This document shows positions 11,471 to 63,958 of a DNA stretch of 64,000 bases, piece by piece. The number at the start of each line of letters is the position of its first letter. The first letter of the stretch is position 1. Made by a program: the position numbers and the translations under genes. This DNA comes from an uncultured bacterium (GTDB taxonomy: Bacteria > Patescibacteriota > Patescibacteriia > Magasanikbacterales > UBA922), in NCBI GenBank assembly GCA_937861125.1, contig CALMAY010000037.1, forward strand, positions 260,941 to 324,940. Direction: 5' to 3'. Below the pieces are notes generated by a model, which worked only from the letters and a program-made list of their open reading frames with translations, was not told the DNA's origin and searched no databases.

Positions 11471-11508
11471 TAAAATACAAACCCCGCTCTTTTGCAAGGG
11501 CGGGGTTT
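11471..11508 (-). terminator. terminator hairpin at the 3' end of rnpB
   Basis: AAACCCCGC / GCGGGGTTT stem (11479-11508), followed on the minus strand by TGTATTTT. Confidence 0.55.
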
Positions 11509-12033
11509 GCTCATTATATAAGCCGAATTTTGTACTTCGACTCGCCCGCCATGGGCGGACTCGCTCAGTATAAATTCCCTTGCGAGATTTATCATGAGTG
11601 AGCGTAGCGAATCGAATGACAATCATTTCTCTGTTCACTGCATTACTGCGATGAATCAAACGTGCGAACTTTTCCAATCAATCACACATACATTCGCTTA
11701 AAGCACACTGTTGATATGTTGTATATCTTGAGCCTGCCCTGAGCGAACGCATGTGAGCCGAAGGGCTGCACTTTCTCCACGTAGGGTTTACCACGAACCA
11801 ATCTCACGATTGGTCGAGAATAGAAGTTTTTCTCCGCGGGACAAAAACACCCATTCACTTTTCACCTTTCACCGCGAATTGCTTCGCGACTTGTATTGTC
11901 TCTGTGGCACTTTCCCGCTTTGTACCTCACGGTACAAAAGGGTGGGTATTACCCACTGCGTATATCCCAAACAAGTTTGGAATAGAGCTCGGACTTTCCT
12001 CCCCGCCGAAGCAGGGCGATTGTCATAATGAAT
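11509..12033 (-). ncRNA. rnpB: RNase P RNA, bacterial type A, unusually long (~525 nt)
   Basis: The minus strand contains GGGGAGGAAAGTCCGAGCTC (CR-I), GGGAAAGTGCCACAGAGA, GGTGAAA, GGTAAACCC and ACAAAATTCGGCTTAT (CR-V). P1 can form between TCATTAT (12025-12031) and ATAATGA (11511-11517). Confidence 0.85.
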
Positions 12034-12053
12034 TGAGTGTTTGACCACTCATG

Positions 12054-46598: not shown

Positions 46599-46618
46599 AT
46601 GTTGGAAAGGGTACAAAT

Positions 46619-46708
46619 AAAAAGGATACAAGATACAAACAAAAACCAAATTACAATCTTAAATCAGCTAAAATTGTATCCTTGGGATTTTTAATTTGTA
46701 TCCTTTTT
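46619..46708. repeat. GGATACAA-family repeats (inverted pair)
   Basis: AAAAAGGATACAAGATACAAAC (46619-46640) faces TTGTATCCTT (46674-46683) and TTGTATCCTTTTT (46696-46708). The last copy encodes the C-terminal residues of pth. Confidence 0.7.
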
Positions 46709-47251
46709 GTTAATCCAGTGCTGTATTTGGTCCACCGCATCCATAATACTTCTCTCTACCGCACCACGTTCAAAAAAGCCAAATTTTCCTAGTACAAAAT
46801 CAACAGTATCTTTCATTTTATCTGGGTTCTTGTGTCCGACACCGACACGGAGGCGGGCAAAGTTTTGGGTGTTTAGATGTGCGATGATGGACTTGTTCCC
46901 ATTGTGTCCAGCTGCACTGCGGTTTACTTGGAGTCGATTGTCACCGAGTAAAATATCTTTTTCATCGTGAACCACGAGAATATCTGCTTCTGTAAGTTTG
47001 TAAAAATCGCAAACGGCACGTACTGACACACCAGAATCATTCATGAATGTTTGTGGTTTGAGGAGAATGATTTTTTCACTGTTGATTGTGCCGCCACTGA
47101 TCATTGCGTTGAATTTTTTGTCCATTGCCCAGTCAGAAATACCTTCTTTTTTCCAAGTAGCGTGAAGTGTATCCAAAATAATGAAGCCAATGTTGTGGCG
47201 TGTTTTTTCGTATTGTTTTCCTGGATTACCTAAACCGACTATGAGTTTCAT
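46691..47251 (-). CDS. pth: peptidyl-tRNA hydrolase
   Basis: MKLIVGLGNPGKQYEKTRHNIGF and AGHNG motifs. Confidence 0.92.
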   Translation of the reverse strand: MKLIVGLGNPGKQYEKTRHNIGFIILDTLHATWKKEGISDWAMDKKFNAMISGGTINSEKIILLKPQTFMNDSGVSVRAVCDFYKLTEADILVVHDEKDILLGDNRLQVNRSAAGHNGNKSIIAHLNTQNFARLRVGVGHKNPDKMKDTVDFVLGKFGFFERGAVERSIMDAVDQIQHWINKKDTN

Positions 47252-47297
47252 ATGGAGTTGTCTAATGGTCAGTAGTATACAAAGTTTTTGTAGAAAT

Positions 47298-47331
47298 TAA
47301 AAGGACACAAGTTTGTATCCTTATGTCCTTT
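47298..47331. repeat. GGAYACAA-family imperfect palindrome
   Basis: AAAAGGACACAAG-tttgtatc-CTTATGTCCTTTT between der (stop) and pth (start). Could also act as a weak terminator on the minus strand. Confidence 0.6.
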
Positions 47332-47350
47332 TCATTTTTAATTTTCTTAC

Positions 47351-48869: not shown

Positions 48870-48969
48870 GGTACTGAGTATTGATGATTGTGTGTTCAAA
48901 TGATCGTGACACACCTGTGCCTGTTTCAGTTTTTGATCATTTGGTCATACAATCATCTGATCATTCACT

Positions 48970-50475
48970 TTATTCACTAAAATCTTCACCCAAAATAACC
49001 AAAATCTCTGTTCCGGTCGCAGTTATTGGTGTGATAGTGTCTGCATCGCGAGGTGGTATCTGCAGGAGGGAGGAGATGCTCTGTACGACATCAAGCGGGG
49101 CAGTAGAGGTGAGTGTGTAGATACCACTTTGTGGTACTGGGCGTGTCTCTGTGTTTCCAATGGTAGCTACATTAATATGTGCATCTTCGAGTCGTTTTTC
49201 TATACGGGCTGCCATGCCAGCTGACCAGGTACCATTTTGTATTTCTACACTTGTGATTGGTTGTGTTGGGGTGGTCTGTGGTGGTGTGTCGTCAATAGTT
49301 GATGTATGTGTAGATGATGTGGAATCAAAGATGGCAGCGACTTGATGTTTGATGTCATCATATGATCCTGTTTTTGGTAATAATAAATATGCACCTCCGT
49401 CGCCAATCGCGTCTTTGAGTGGGCCTTCTGCACTACTATCAAATACAATTTTGTGTAATGTATCTGTTTGGATAGTTTTGGCTTTGCGAATAAAGGTGAG
49501 CATCTCATCAAACGTCATGTTGGTCGTCATGTGGGTATCCAGTGACTGCATGATATTGTTGATACGCACTGGATTAAGAATGGTTTCGTAGGAAAGCACT
49601 TTTTCTTTGAGTGCGAGGATGACTTTTTGTTGACGAGCAGCGCGAGCAAAATCAGAACCTTCGCCGTTGTTGCCATGTCGTGAGCGGGCAAAGGTGAGGG
49701 CTGTATTTCCATCCATTGTCGTGATTCCTTTTGTGAATTGAACCGTTTTGTATTCAATAGTTCCCTCAAGAGGAAACAGTGGATCAACAAATGTTTTGTC
49801 TACCTGTACAGTAATACCGCCTACCTCATCGATAATTTCTGCAAATGCTTTGAAGTCTACACGTACATAATAATGTATTGGTATACCTAGTGTGTCACCG
49901 ATGACTTCACTGGCAAATGCACCACCCCAGCCTTCTTTTTTTTGTTCACCAAAGTGGTTGGCGTGGTTGATTTTTCGCATGCCTTGGTCAGGAATTATTA
50001 CGCCCATATCACGTGGGAGCGAGATCATAGCCACTTCGTTATTCGATGGTTTGATACTGATGACCATGATCGTGTCAGTGAGGTAGGGGCCGTCGTGTCC
50101 TGGACCACCCATACCAAGTAGCAGAACGTTGATACGATCTTCCTTTTCACCTTTTAATGTTTGTTCTTCATAAAAAAAGATGTGACTCAGACGACTGAGA
50201 AAGCCAGTTGGTTGTTTTGGCTCAAGTGTGATGTCGTCGTAGAGGAGTGGATCGTTGTTGGTATAGTTGACCTGTGACTGTATTGCTTTGTAGAGGAAAA
50301 AACAGACACAAAGTAGTGTGCCTGTACTAAAAATAAAAAAAAGAGGCCAACGAGAGGGTGTTTCTTTGGTCTGTATATGTGGAATTGTTTTGGGTATTAA
50401 TTCTGTTTGTACGAGCGGTGTGGTGTGTTCTTCCGGTGGTACGTCGAGAAAATTAATTCGAGATCGTTCGGGCAT
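48970..50475 (-). CDS. LytR-CpsA-Psr (LCP) family cell-envelope transferase with a C-terminal LytR_C-like domain
   Basis: One TM, then INVLLLGMGGPGHDGPYLTDTIMVISI...ISLPRD is the LCP core. Confidence 0.85.
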   Translation of the reverse strand: MPERSRINFLDVPPEEHTTPLVQTELIPKTIPHIQTKETPSRWPLFFIFSTGTLLCVCFFLYKAIQSQVNYTNNDPLLYDDITLEPKQPTGFLSRLSHIFFYEEQTLKGEKEDRINVLLLGMGGPGHDGPYLTDTIMVISIKPSNNEVAMISLPRDMGVIIPDQGMRKINHANHFGEQKKEGWGGAFASEVIGDTLGIPIHYYVRVDFKAFAEIIDEVGGITVQVDKTFVDPLFPLEGTIEYKTVQFTKGITTMDGNTALTFARSRHGNNGEGSDFARAARQQKVILALKEKVLSYETILNPVRINNIMQSLDTHMTTNMTFDEMLTFIRKAKTIQTDTLHKIVFDSSAEGPLKDAIGDGGAYLLLPKTGSYDDIKHQVAAIFDSTSSTHTSTIDDTPPQTTPTQPITSVEIQNGTWSAGMAARIEKRLEDAHINVATIGNTETRPVPQSGIYTLTSTAPLDVVQSISSLLQIPPRDADTITPITATGTEILVILGEDFSE

Positions 50476-50482
50476 ATGTTGT

Positions 50483-50515
50483 GAAAAGAAAAAAGAAAAA
50501 GATACAAGGACACAA
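50483..50515 (+). repeat. purine-run/GAYACAAGGAYACAA repeat, copy A
   Basis: GAAAAGAAAAAAGAAAAAGATACAAGGACACAA, immediately 3' of the four-helix-bundle gene. Confidence 0.7.
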
Positions 50516-50519
50516 TTTG

Positions 50520-50876
50520 CTACATGTTTGTATGGTTTTCTCTTGTCTTTGTTATGATGGCGGAGAGGATGTATGTTATTTCTCTACTCTCTTGGAGTAG
50601 ATCGTTCATCCTAGGTGCGAGGGTTGGGTTTGCTTCGGCTATCAACTCAATCCAGTGTGTGGTTTCTTTGCTTTCTTTTCGTGATATTTTGAGACGAAAG
50701 AGAAAATCTTTTGTACCCGTAGCATCATTTGCCTCGCGATAGTTGGCACCCACGGATGTGCCTGAACGAAGACATTGTCCGCTGAGTATCTTGTTTGTTT
50801 GGTTATTAGGCAGTGCTTGGATTAGACGTACGATGCGCTTTCCAAATTCAGATGTTCTTTGTTCTAGGTCGTACAT
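50520..50876 (-). CDS. four-helix-bundle protein of the 23S rRNA intervening-sequence (S23p) family
   Basis: SVGANYREANDATGTKDFLFRLKISRKESKETTHWIELI is the family signature. ATG at 50876 chosen; the longer ORF's N-terminus is encoded by repeat copy B. Confidence 0.85.
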   Translation of the reverse strand: MYDLEQRTSEFGKRIVRLIQALPNNQTNKILSGQCLRSGTSVGANYREANDATGTKDFLFRLKISRKESKETTHWIELIAEANPTLAPRMNDLLQESREITYILSAIITKTRENHTNM

Positions 50877-50880
50877 AGGT

Positions 50881-50910
50881 GGAAAAGAAAAAGGACGCAA
50901 AATACAATAC
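50881..50910 (+). repeat. degenerate repeat copy B
   Basis: GGAAAAGAAAAAGGACGCAAAATACAATAC, directly upstream of the four-helix-bundle gene start. Confidence 0.45.
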
Positions 50911-51000
50911 ACCTAAGTTTGTTTTTATATCTATTATTGCGCATATTGTACCATATTACCTGTGGGCAAAACAAGGTTGTGCGGTGTACTGTGTATTAGA

Positions 51001-51034
51001 TTTGTATCCTTGTGTTTTTTCTTTTCTCTTTTCC
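51001..51034 (-). repeat. repeat copy C, inverted relative to copy A
   Basis: TTTGTATCCTTGTGTTTTTTCTTTTCTCTTTTCC. Its reverse complement is GGAAAAGAGAAAAGAAAAAACACAAGGATACAAA. Confidence 0.7.
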
Positions 51035-51086
51035 ACCTCCCTGTGTATATCTCAATGGCATATATATACTTGCTTTATTCAAAATG

Positions 51087-51095
51087 TGCTATACT
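51087..51095 (+). promoter_or_regulatory. extended -10 element TGCTATACT upstream of the T4SS-like cluster
   Basis: TGnTATACT about 100 nt upstream of the GTG at 51193. The D/E palindrome would lie in the leader. Confidence 0.3.
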
Positions 51096-51101
51096 GTATA
51101 T

Positions 51102-51186
51102 GAAAAGAAAAAATCAAAAGGACACAAGATACAACGTAGTATCTATGTGCGTTTGTATCCTTGTATCTTTTTCTTTTTAATTTTCC
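51102..51186. repeat. repeat copies D and E forming an ~85-nt imperfect palindrome
   Basis: GAAAAGAAAAAATCAAAAGGACACAAGATACAA (51102-51134) faces TTTGTATCCTTGTATCTTTTTCTTTTTAATTTTCC (51152-51186). Confidence 0.7.
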
Positions 51187-51192
51187 AAACTT

Positions 51193-51696
51193 GTGCCAAA
51201 AAAAACAAACGATGTTGCAAGTATAGGAACTATACAGCATCAATGGAATGTTACTGAGTACGAACATCACGATCGTGCTCCTTTTTGGTACATTTTTATG
51301 ATGAGTATTGGGATTTTGCTGGTTGGATTTGGATTGTTTACGGGTAATTTTCTGTTTTCACTTATTATTATTTTGTTTGCGATTATTTTATTTTTGCAAT
51401 CACAACAACACCCCATCGAAGTCCCGTTTATGATTACTGATCTGGGCATAGTTATTTCTGATCGATTTTATGCATTTAGTGAGTTGAGAGAATTTTATAT
51501 TATCTATCAACCTCCAGAGGTAAAAACACTGTATGTCGAGACACATGGTGTTTGGCATCCACGTTTGCGTATCCCACTCTATGATCAAAATCCAGTAGAG
51601 GTGCGTCATACATTGCAAAATTTTTTGATAGAAAATATAGAAAAAGAAGACGAGCCTCTTTCGGATCGTCTTTCGAGAAATTGGGGTATTCATTGA
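51193..51696 (+). CDS. hypothetical 2-TM protein, first gene of the T4SS-like cluster
   Basis: GTG start. Two adjacent TM helices (FWYIFMMSIGILLVGFGLF, FLFSLIIILFAIILFL), then a ~90-aa soluble domain. The next gene starts 11 nt downstream. Confidence 0.55.
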   Translation: MPKKTNDVASIGTIQHQWNVTEYEHHDRAPFWYIFMMSIGILLVGFGLFTGNFLFSLIIILFAIILFLQSQQHPIEVPFMITDLGIVISDRFYAFSELREFYIIYQPPEVKTLYVETHGVWHPRLRIPLYDQNPVEVRHTLQNFLIENIEKEDEPLSDRLSRNWGIH

Positions 51697-63774: not shown

Positions 63775-63864
63775 GGAGAGATGGCTGAGTGGTCGATAGC
63801 AACGGTTTACTAAACCGTAGTTCTCGCAAGAGGACCCAGGGTTCGAATCCCTGTCTCTCCGCCA
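63775..63864 (+). tRNA. tRNA-Ser-like class II tRNA whose anticodon reads ACU (unusual)
   Basis: Acceptor GGAGAGA/TCTCTCC, a 3-bp D stem (GCT/AGC), anticodon arm ACGGT-TTACTAA-ACCGT, a long variable arm, T-arm CAGGGTTCGAATCCCTG and an encoded CCA. Confidence 0.75.
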
Positions 63865-63872
63865 GGAGATGA

Positions 63873-63958
<86 letters not shown>

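Follow-up and report, generated by a model that had tools for sequence, protein, structure and literature searches.

A probable intervening-sequence-type palindromic cassette carrying a PF05635 gene outside rRNA, in the leader of an LCP operon

The locus lies in a window of 64 kb, by which the whole stretch of DNA analysed is meant, between an LCP gene, whose product matches LytR families, and a T4SS-like cluster in which PrgI, TraC-like and VirB4-like proteins are found. The preliminary description had placed it there and had also reported inverted repeats at 50483-50515 and 51001-51034, a single S23p-family gene (50520-50876) in the segment between them, a degenerate third repeat copy abutting the start of this gene, and a position outside any rRNA gene. 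Each of these points stands: the sequence and an inverted-repeat search agree on the two repeats, the gene is matched by both PF05635 and TIGR02436, the third copy is present at the ATG, and Rfam finds no rRNA in the window. The features of the locus are the following, with arms and further repeat copies denoted by letters.

50483-51039, minus strand: the whole inserted cassette of about 557 bp, comprising arm C, a promoter-bearing spacer, copy B, the S23p gene and arm A
50483-50515: arm A, the downstream (3') arm relative to the S23p gene, reading GAAAAGAAAAAAGAAAAAGATACAAGGACACAA on the plus strand and TTGTGTCCTTGTATCTTTTTCTTTTTTCTTTTC on the minus strand
50520-50876, minus strand: the S23p (PF05635, TIGR02436) four-helix-bundle gene, 118 aa
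50875-50910: copy B, an extra copy in pyrimidine orientation that abuts the S23p ATG and is complementary over 19 nt (89%) to the outer portion of arm C
50945-50974, minus strand: a candidate internal promoter of the extended -10 type, TTGTTT-N18-TGG-TACAAT, as read from the sequence
51001-51039: arm C, the upstream (5') arm relative to the S23p gene, reading GAGGTGGAAAAGAGAAAAGAAAAAACACAAGGATACAAA on the minus strand; its part 51001-51034 is GGAAAAGAGAAAAGAAAAAACACAAGGATACAAA when reverse-complemented
51040-51055, minus strand: the remnant of the ancestral LCP promoter, a -35 box TTGAGA with 10 nt of spacer

The S23p gene is the only PF05635 gene of the window and scores well above the family cut-offs (PF05635, E = 2e-16 and 60.5 bits against 33.8; TIGR02436, 82 bits against 24). 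The 557-bp insert holds no other ORF, and no transposase, recombinase or reverse transcriptase. The protein matches PDB entry 2RLD by phmmer (E = 6e-19), and its AlphaFold monomer model (pLDDT 95.4) comprises four helices (residues 5-21, 26-50, 55-82 and 87-116) in an up-down bundle, as is typical of the family, whose members have about 110-125 residues. Foldseek superimposes this model on 2RLD with a TM score of 0.81-0.88 and on 2GSC with about 0.8; both of these structures contain five chains. With a dN/dS of 0.056 between the window and the relative L085, the gene is under strong purifying selection.

The protein is also a homologue of Avd, the pentameric, reverse-transcriptase-binding accessory protein of diversity-generating retroelements (DGRs), with TM scores of about 0.65-0.70 to the Avd structures 4DWL and 8UB7. 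CPR genomes are rich in DGRs. It could thus be argued that the gene is an Avd accessory gene and that the repeats are parts of a retroelement. This reading was rejected as highly improbable, because there is neither a reverse transcriptase nor a pair of template and variable repeats. The adjacent genes, LCP and a 167-aa ORF without a Pfam match, do not encode a reverse transcriptase, no reverse-transcriptase Pfam domain occurs in the called genes within about 10 kb on either side, and no template/variable repeat pair was detected within 6 kb. Moreover, the profiles assign the protein to PF05635/TIGR02436, and its similarity to 2RLD is far greater than that to Avd, with which it shares a related four-helix-bundle fold but only about 13-15% sequence identity, and the neighbours of S23p genes at other loci are housekeeping genes.

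The inverted pair formed by arm A (50483-50515) and arm C (51001-51034) is complementary over 25 nt at 88% and over 18 nt at 94% in the inverted-repeat search, and the outermost inverted repeat spans 45 nt (50471-50515 with 51153-51197, 84% complementary). The arms are imperfect, about 34-39 nt long, and composed of GAnACAA-type heptamers and a purine run. In the window arms the periodicity is weak: each has no more than two or three GAnACAA units, and period 7 ranks first by a narrow margin. The outer two-thirds of each arm consist of a low-complexity GAAAA-type purine run, which would suit the view that arms A and C resemble each other by chance, as purine and pyrimidine runs may. This view was nevertheless rejected and deserves next to no credence: a search for the 33-mer with up to three mismatches returned two sites, against none expected from shuffled sequences, and all eight copies detected by a motif profile in the 64 kb fall within 4.6 kb (46.6-51.2 kb), the other 59 kb having none. 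In addition, the arms are conserved in L085, and their core GAYACAAGGAYACAA, which is not of low complexity, recurs beside S23p genes elsewhere.

The window locus is atypical in carrying copy B, which is better preserved in L085, and in having its arm C about 125 nt away from the ATG. A reading of AUACAAGGAU as a CsrA site, based on the consensus that SELEX reportedly yields, was dropped, as GGA is absent from most related arms.

The insertion itself becomes apparent from relatives with and without it, the junctions of the window having been aligned with three empty sites (L168, L167 and L170, whose LCP orthologues are 82%, 81% and 70% identical) and with the filled site of L085. In the three sister lineages, the 167-aa gene and LCP diverge across only 170, 88 and 93 nt, respectively, and both the S23p gene and the purine-rich arms are missing. 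The difference between filled and empty sites spans exactly 50483-51039 and thus coincides with the outer ends of arms A and C. Common sequence resumes at ...CACAGG (51045-51040) on one side and at ACAACAT-ATG (50482-50473) on the other. The empty-site promoter, TTGAGA-N17-TATACT, is interrupted in the window: the -35 box is retained and the -10 box TATACT is gone. At the insertion point the ancestral leader is shorter by about 26 nt and shows no duplication: no direct repeat indicative of a target-site duplication exists at 50476-50482 and 51040-51046. The alignment shows the cassette to be a discrete insertion that separates the -35 box from the start codon in the promoter/leader of the LCP operon, and in this respect the earlier proposal of a self-contained cassette is borne out. 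A protein search with LCP in the genome-contig collection retrieved only Bacillaceae LCP genes of about 33% identity.

The repeat is not confined to the cassette. Beyond A, B and C, six further copies were located, and the repeat also forms hairpins without an ORF at four nearby intergenic spots; three hairpins are listed here.

51100-51186: hairpin D/E without an ORF, formed by copies D (51102-51135) and E (51152-51186); a second insertion according to the alignment with relatives
47291-47344: hairpin of copy F with a short partner, between der and pth (-18.6 kcal/mol, z = -5.9)
46606-46711: hairpin H/G, between pth and dprA (-26.4 kcal/mol, z = -4.2)

Hairpin D/E is absent from the empty-site relatives in the alignment and folds with -24.2 and -23.0 kcal/mol on the two strands (z = -4.7 and -4.1). 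Copies G and H occupy 46606-46705; copy G ends just before the ATG of dprA (46599), and copy H overlaps the last codons of pth. The hairpin of copy F is kept in L168. ORF-less hairpins with matching arms also occur on Patescibacteria contigs that carry S23p genes. The arms thus occur without an S23p gene too, as intergenic hairpins.

The locus prompted a comparison with about 85 other genomes, in which 71 other S23p loci of Patescibacteria and 13 plasmid loci were examined. Flanking inverted repeats with a score of at least 30 accompany 70% of the 71 Patescibacteria loci, compared with 6% of 230 other genes from the same contigs (p = 1e-24), the median scores being 38 and 17; shuffled, direct and cross-locus controls were also run. 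Arms of this kind are thus carried by other S23p genes too. In nearly all cases, the S23p gene is co-directional with its neighbours (67 of 71 upstream, 57 of 67 downstream). The cassettes reside in ATP-synthase, ribosomal-protein, cell-wall, defence and CRISPR operons, and the host sites include the gaps between atpA and atpG, nusG and rplK, LCP and der, murG and gltX, and PfkB and AdoHcyase, as well as a position just upstream of tmRNA. An Rfam scan of 14 related loci revealed a single tmRNA and no adjoining rRNA. Arms with a GAYACAAGGAYACAA-type core are common to eleven S23p loci in quite different neighbourhoods.

These data bear on the possibility that the repeats belong to the host rather than to an element. 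The repeats would then be intercistronic hairpins or shared leaders, serving as processing sites, stabilisers, terminators or a U-rich translation leader; the S23p gene would simply be resident between two of them, and the inversion would follow from the divergent transcription of LCP and the 167-aa gene. Several observations point in this direction. Copies are found at four intergenic spots without S23p, and every intercistronic gap of the operon contains a hairpin, one of them from another family, while relatives carry different hairpins at the same spots. The arm in pyrimidine orientation ends 5-7 nt before the starts of S23p, LCP, the 167-aa gene and dprA (for arm A, 7 nt lie between its end and the LCP ATG at 50475; hairpin D/E stands 7 nt upstream of the GTG at 51193 of the 167-aa gene), and the 45-nt outer inverted repeat takes in both start codons. 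Against this, gene and arms are missing together in the sister lineages, the bracketing is specific to S23p (70% against 6%), arms with the same core are found with S23p where the neighbouring genes are unrelated, and five phyla show the pattern, each time with other heptamers. A purely host-derived origin of the repeats is therefore considered unlikely.

The recurrence across phyla concerns the internal structure of the arms. A strict detector of runs consisting only of A/C or only of G/T found almost no arms, because these contain all four bases; runs were then detected by CAA/TTG density together with a period analysis. The arms prove to be arrays of tandem heptamers, period 7 being the top period in 113 of 142 S23p flanks but in only 95 of 490 others. 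Tandem heptamers before the S23p ATG are clear in relatives of the window and in other phyla. The inverted layout was seen in all 13 plasmid loci, from Cyanobacteria, Chloroflexota, Spirochaetota and Bacteroidota, where period 7 leads in 25 of 26 flanks. Judged from sequence, inverted tandem-heptamer arrays are a hallmark of the PF05635 family in at least five phyla. The arrays range from about 3 to 15 units, and the idea of one heptamer per protomer, with five per arm, finds no support as a fixed number.

The heptamer content follows the identity of the protein (rho = 0.65, with none of 500 permutations as high), and two paralogues on one contig (L120) possess different heptamers, as do two on separate Chlorohelix plasmids. 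Shared descent could produce this link between heptamer and protein instead of binding.

The occurrence of heptamer arrays around the S23p family in several phyla makes the rRNA element look like one case of a wider class. To our knowledge, the intervening sequences (IVSs) of rRNA and their S23p ORF have lacked an explanation since about 1990 as regards the role of the protein, the arms and the spread. The preliminary description had likened the locus to an rRNA IVS, and the likeness is closer than was claimed. As in the IVSs of Coxiella burnetii and Leptospira, a gene of the S23p/PF05635 family lies between complementary arms for which a long stem is predicted, the element occurs sporadically, some sites being filled and others empty, and short versions without an ORF exist. 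In the 23S IVS of the gammaproteobacterium Coxiella, three to four GACAGAT units lie just upstream of the S23p ATG; RNase III cuts at the first of them, and their copy number varies between strains (PMC4990558). This arrangement of tandem heptamers in the 5' arm before the ATG is clear in the relatives of the window and weak in the window arms. Unlike the rRNA elements, which lie within 23S or 16S genes (helix 25 or 45), the window cassette resides in the promoter/leader of a protein-coding operon (between cistrons in its relatives), and it contains a promoter-like element of its own as well as one additional arm copy. Furthermore, the Coxiella ORF is decaying, whereas the window gene is strongly conserved by selection.

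Whether the arms act as a stem depends on their meeting on one RNA. The C-A RNA duplex comprises about 36 pairs with -40.8 kcal/mol, and in a minus-strand RNA of 581 nt the C-A stem closes both the MFE and the centroid structure (z = -3.4). At this locus, however, the best promoter candidate is situated within the loop, downstream of arm C and ahead of the gene, so that the two arms may not be transcribed together. The TGGTACAAT element of this candidate promoter is conserved in L085; a consensus promoter scan did not call it, and within 50300-51400 the scan returned no terminator-like site and a single promoter-like site on the wrong strand. No RNase III signature was recognised in the six-frame translation of the 64-kb window.

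The same cassette may also be explained without an RNase III stem. In this case, the arms would be protein-binding arrays on DNA or single-stranded RNA, occupied by the S23p pentamer or a host factor, and their inverted symmetry would be a by-product of the way the element is built or moves. This explanation is possible, but we regard it as the less probable one. It draws on the quality of the pairing: in a stretch of about 48 nt only about 79% of the arm positions pair, their mismatches are mostly transversions, and the transcribed strand reveals no excess of G.U over A.C mismatches (98 against 90), which is weak for a helix kept by selection. The strict period of 7, which arbitrary complementary sequence would not have, and a heptamer vocabulary that follows the protein, so that paralogues on one contig or in one organism have different sets, point the same way. 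In addition, binding to a defined RNA element is described for the structural relative Avd (bioRxiv 10.1101/2023.10.23.563531), and the paired hepta-/octamer arrays of Geobacter have been proposed as regulator sites (PMC2700814). The opposite is indicated by the RNase III cut within the Coxiella heptamer region, which was determined experimentally (PMC4990558), and by the arms of a given locus, which pair better with each other than with arms of other loci sharing the vocabulary (median -39.3 against -29.3 kcal/mol, p = 2.5e-6). Pairing is also slightly stronger for the sense than for the antisense strand of the arms (p = 0.05).

Taken together, 50483-51039 is probably an IVS-type palindromic cassette, in which a PF05635/TIGR02436 gene is set in inverted heptamer arms outside rRNA. 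Such a cassette would be mobile now or would have been so formerly. It would rely on host transcription and, at this locus, also on the internal extended -10 promoter, which may now drive the S23p-LCP-der-pth-dprA operon. Wherever both arms are on one transcript, they could form a long stem, and cleavage of this stem by RNase III, as in rRNA IVSs, would separate the S23p mRNA from the RNA on either side. The Avd-like and presumably pentameric product of the S23p gene is likely to recognise the heptamers of its own arms. The hairpins without an ORF may be miniature derivatives of the cassette.

Other mobile or repetitive systems share some of these traits. Like a RAYT gene with its REP/REPIN sequences, the S23p gene is a single gene between inverted copies of a short repeat that is also scattered as extragenic hairpin doublets. 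The window protein, however, is a small helical bundle (PF05635 only) and not an HUH Y1 transposase of the IS200/IS605 type, and the arms are tandem heptamer arrays instead of GTAG/CGTC-tagged palindromes. That the S23p protein mobilises the hairpins would be pure conjecture. With MITEs and insertion sequences bounded by terminal inverted repeats, the cassette has in common a discrete insertion, inverted repeats at its boundaries, empty sites and short ORF-less derivatives. It differs from them in the lack of a transposase and of a target-site duplication, in the partial deletion of host sequence at the junction, and in an orientation strongly biased relative to host transcription.

The locus offers a clean comparison of filled and empty sites outside rRNA. 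In view of the heptamer arrays across the protein family, the IVS may be recast as one case of a general cassette riding on host transcription. Genes annotated as "four helix bundle protein" between operon genes may accordingly deserve to be read as insertions, and such insertions can replace promoters or leaders, as at 50483-51039. Literature searches, the coverage of which misses most subscription journals, retrieved no paper in which PF05635 genes located outside rRNA are connected with heptamer arrays at their flanks; the general pattern thus appears not to be described in the searchable literature, which is no proof of its novelty.

It is conceivable, at a rather speculative level, that PF05635 genes and inverted heptamer arrays constitute a single pan-bacterial class of autonomous elements, whose protein would read its own heptamers and drive their spread or RNA-level behaviour. 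The rRNA IVSs would be its rRNA-resident members. Several unexplained classes of intergenic heptamer repeats would thereby gain a candidate origin as non-autonomous derivatives: the STRR, which we take to be the intergenic tandem heptamers of cyanobacteria, the TAACTGA arrays of Beggiatoa, the paired sites of Geobacter and the CPR hairpins. The STRR, Beggiatoaceae and Geobacter arrays resemble the S23p arms in that 3 to more than 10 heptamers stand in tandem in intergenic regions, often ending just before start codons, but the reports on them make no mention of a PF05635 gene between or beside the arrays. In the Beggiatoaceae the TAACTGA arrays are intergenic (PMC4679880), and in Geobacter metallireducens the "global regulator sites" are paired, with the members of a pair on opposite strands (PMC2700814). 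Among the cassettes with an S23p gene, that of Planktothrix is flanked by CCCCAAT-type units and that of Euhalothece by TCACTGG/TAACTGG units.

The S23p gene is bracketed by two inverted copies of a purine-rich 33-34-mer ending in GAYACAAGGAYACAA, arms A (50483-50515) and C (51001-51034), as the preliminary description had reported. In a repeat search, A and C are complementary over 25 nt at 88% and over 18 nt at 94%, a match expected 0 times in shuffled sequence. The degenerate copy B, described at the same time, is present and abuts the S23p ATG. Searched with a profile of the arm motif, the 64 kb yields eight copies, none of them outside 46.6-51.2 kb.

Features of the cassette and its surroundings (all but the ORF were overlooked in the preliminary description)
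50520-50876, minus strand: S23p ORF, 118 aa, the sole ORF between the arms
51100-51186: D/E, an ORF-less hairpin
46606-46711: H/G, further repeat copies
47291-47344: F, a further repeat copy
50471-50515 with 51153-51197: outer inverted repeat of 45 nt, extending into the start codons of both divergent genes

The window's contig is of Patescibacteria and, going by homologue names, probably Magasanikbacteria-like. Comparison with relatives shows the cassette, with its single conserved gene, to be a discrete insertion that has inverted arms at its ends. In L085, a filled-site relative with a 93% identical S23p, B, A and part of C are retained at the same place. Three further lineages, L168, L167 and L170, have LCP proteins 82%, 81% and 70% identical and retain the order 167-aa gene <-> LCP-der-pth, with 170, 88 and 93 nt, respectively, between the divergent genes; neither the S23p gene nor purine-rich arms are found at their LCP site. 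All aligned sequences share the stretch ...CCATTGAGATATACACAGG. The empty sites run on as TGTTTGATATACT... into a good promoter, TTGAGA-N17-TATACT, and the LCP ATG lies 34-45 nt past CACAGG, whereas the window runs on as GAGGTGGAAAAG... (arm C) and rejoins the shared sequence only at ACAACAT-ATG, immediately past arm A. These points of divergence and return place the insert at 50483-51039, within 5 nt of the cassette originally delimited. Its limits coincide with the outer edges of the inverted repeat, and the old LCP promoter has lost its -10 box to it. The old leader is short of about 26 nt, no target-site duplication is seen at the insert, and nothing within it accounts for mobility.

Between C and B, the insert contains an extended -10 motif, TTGTTT-N18-TGG-TACAAT, which is conserved in L085 and is similar to TGnTATACT, a motif found ahead of the 167-aa gene. 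A consensus promoter scan leaves this candidate uncalled; from its sequence, we infer that it now drives S23p-LCP-der-pth-dprA. The D/E hairpin, missing from all three empty-site relatives, is a second, ORF-less insertion, placed downstream of the likely -10 box of the 167-aa gene and ahead of its GTG. S23p, LCP, the 167-aa gene and dprA each have a pyrimidine-orientation arm ending 5-7 nt ahead of the start codon. Short-read contigs of this organism (L002, L004) and of L085 end ~170 or 305 nt upstream of S23p, in L085 within arm C; such breaks are consistent with arms repeated elsewhere in those genomes.

Other hairpins accompany this operon. Copy H (46691-46711) overlaps the final five codons (…KKDTN) and the stop of pth; thus, either the repeat has turned coding or the gene end has been recruited into the hairpin. 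A 23-nt inverted repeat of a different sequence family (48883-48905 / 48935-48957, 87% complementary) lies between LCP and der, and together with A, F and H/G it places a hairpin in every intercistronic gap of S23p-LCP-der-pth-dprA. The hairpins at the same gaps in relatives are different ones.

The encoded protein matches PF05635 with 60.5 bits (cut-off 33.8), TIGR02436 with 82 bits (cut-off 24) and 2RLD, a family member of solved structure, with E = 6e-19. Its predicted structure is a four-helix bundle (pLDDT 95.4) that superposes on 2RLD with a TM of 0.81-0.88 and on 2GSC with about 0.8; Avd, the accessory protein of diversity-generating retroelements (DGRs), is more distant (about 0.65-0.70). 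The gene is under strong purifying selection, with a dN/dS of 0.056 against L085. In the same comparison, its dS (0.60) is well under that of the adjacent LCP gene (48970-50475; 1.35), a difference suggesting either a cassette younger than its host gene or recombination of the cassette between lineages.

The cassette belongs to a widespread class lying in sense orientation inside transcription units. When metagenomes were scanned with aligned S23p homologues as the query, 80 loci were recovered, 71 of which had enough flanking sequence to be analysed. The flank score, which compares the upstream 150 nt with the reverse complement of the downstream 150 nt, has a median of 38 at these S23p genes and of 17 at 230 other genes that share their contigs. 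A score of at least 30 is reached by 70% of the former and 6% of the latter (p = 1e-24), so the check for arms at other S23p genes, proposed at the outset, is positive across these Patescibacteria loci. Two of the 11 listed high-scoring "other" genes are themselves further PF05635 paralogues. The median arm-to-arm RNA duplex is -39.3 kcal/mol, against -29.3 with arms of other loci and -24.0 with shuffled arms. The upstream neighbour is co-directional with S23p in 67/71 cases and the downstream one in 57/67, across gaps of roughly 30-100 nt that barely exceed the arms. The window's own GAYACAAGGAYACAA-type core occurs in the arms of 11 loci whose proteins tend to rank among the closest. ORF-less hairpins with matching arms are found elsewhere on the same contigs (e.g. 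three each in L096 and L098). Second PF05635 paralogues share a contig with the first in L120 (7692-8090) and L126 (6866-7249), each with inverted arms of its own. The host sites vary widely.

Host sites of S23p cassettes
between atpA and atpG (twice)
between nusG and rplK
between LCP and der, a gene neighbourhood as in the window, but on the opposite side of LCP
between murG and gltX
with an epimerase and a glycosyltransferase
between PfkB and AdoHcyase
upstream of PrgI
upstream of tmRNA (L133, 4992-5869; about 100 nt away, same strand), a highly expressed stable-RNA context other than rRNA
with a hypothetical gene and an M16 peptidase

The arms in this class are arrays of tandem heptamers; in the window's own pair the periodicity is weak. 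CAA-to-CAA distances within the arms peak at 7, 14 and 21, and 7 outranks every other period in 113/142 S23p flanks vs 95/490 flanks of other genes. A tblastn search of plasmids yields S23p homologues at about 35-43% identity; at the 13 plasmid loci read, period 7 ranks first in 25/26 flanks. At most of these, the two arrays flanking the gene are reverse complements of each other.

Heptamer arrays at plasmid S23p genes (upstream; downstream)
Nostoc (two species): CAATTCG x4; CGAATTG x4
Planktothrix: AATCCCC x4, then AATCGTA x3; CGATTTA-type
Dolichospermum: GTAATTC x4, then GGAATTT x6; TTACGAA x4
Euhalothece: CAGTTAC / CAGTGAG; TCACTGG x12
Bernardetia: TTAGTGA x15; TCACTAA-type
Chlorohelix (two plasmids): AATCCAA-type and ATGAAGG-type; GGATTTT-type and CATAATT-type
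Treponema: CCGCTCT-type; CCGCTCT-type (direct, not inverted)

The CCCCAAT units of Planktothrix are presumably the cyanobacterial STRR1 repeat, reportedly described by Mazel et al. 1990. Protein identity correlates with heptamer content (Spearman 0.65, reached by 0/500 permutations). The two paralogues of L120 have different heptamers, those of the second being TGTTACA/TTGTTAA, and so do the two S23p genes of Chlorohelix on their separate plasmids. The heptamers thus follow the element, not the host; this link could stem from common descent, from binding of the heptamers by the protein that the element encodes, or from the two together.

Outside CPR, plasmid cassettes often lie within defence or transport operons (L173, L178, L182, L183, L172, L177, L179, L181).

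Plasmid sites
between DUF1156 and Swt1-HEPN, in Chloroflexota and Cyanobacteria
between a helicase and an N6-methylase
adjoining cas1 and cas2
between an RND adaptor and an RND permease

On Nostoc sp. ATCC 53789 plasmid pNsp_c (L171, 1228-2124), the cassette has a 77-aa fragment of a "DNA cytosine methyltransferase" on one side and a hypothetical ORF of 92 aa on the other, as though a gene had been split.

Coxiella burnetii's 23S intervening sequence (IVS) has a 28-bp stem at its borders that RNase III cleaves in vitro, and three tandem GACAGAT units plus a degenerate fourth just upstream of the S23p ATG; the 5' cut coincides with the beginning of the first heptamer, and the repeat number is strain-dependent (PMC4990558). 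This anatomy, a stem and heptamers before the S23p ATG, is that of the cassettes found here. L099 and L100 are identical in the downstream arm and the neighbouring gene, but their upstream arms differ in unit number and order, an array-length polymorphism between strains like that of Coxiella. In CPR, 23S_rRNA_IVP ORFs have been surveyed within 16S and 23S insertions (bioRxiv 10.1101/2024.02.27.582315). Strict membership of the rRNA IVS family is ruled out, since that family is defined by a location inside rRNA. The initial reading as an S23p-type, IVS-like cassette outside rRNA is supported by the empty sites and by the arms at other S23p genes, and the cassette has the parts of rRNA IVSs and probably works likewise. 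The searchable literature yielded no paper in which flanking heptamer arrays are tied to PF05635 genes lying outside rRNA. The TAACTGA repeats of Beggiatoaceae, which end just ahead of start codons (PMC4679880), and the paired hepta-/octamer sites on opposite strands in Geobacter metallireducens, one pair of which lies between proB and proA (PMC2700814), resemble the cassette arms, but neither report mentions an S23p protein. The value of the cassette lies more in the general rule it exposes than in the single copy in the window.

The class would, with moderate confidence, rely on host read-through transcription. Both arms would plausibly pair in the transcript to form a long imperfect stem, which RNase III may well cut as it does in rRNA, splitting the S23p message from the flanking cistrons. 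More tentatively, an Avd-like pentamer might recognise the heptamers, and the ORF-less hairpins might be derivatives of the cassette. Several observations weaken the RNA-based reading. Arm pairing reaches no more than about 79%, transversions predominate among the mismatches, G.U is not in excess over A.C (98 vs 90), and the sense strand is favoured only marginally (p = 0.05). At the window locus, the likely promoter within the loop means that C and A may not share a transcript.

Elsewhere in the window, the class A RNase P RNA (11503-12035, minus strand) measures 533 nt against a 367-nt model. It carries an insertion of about 100 nt plus one of about 70 nt near the 3' end, and no heptamer arrays are seen in either. 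Two tRNA-Ser genes adjoin each other (63775-63864 and 63873-63958), and ARAGORN gives the first the unusual anticodon ACT.
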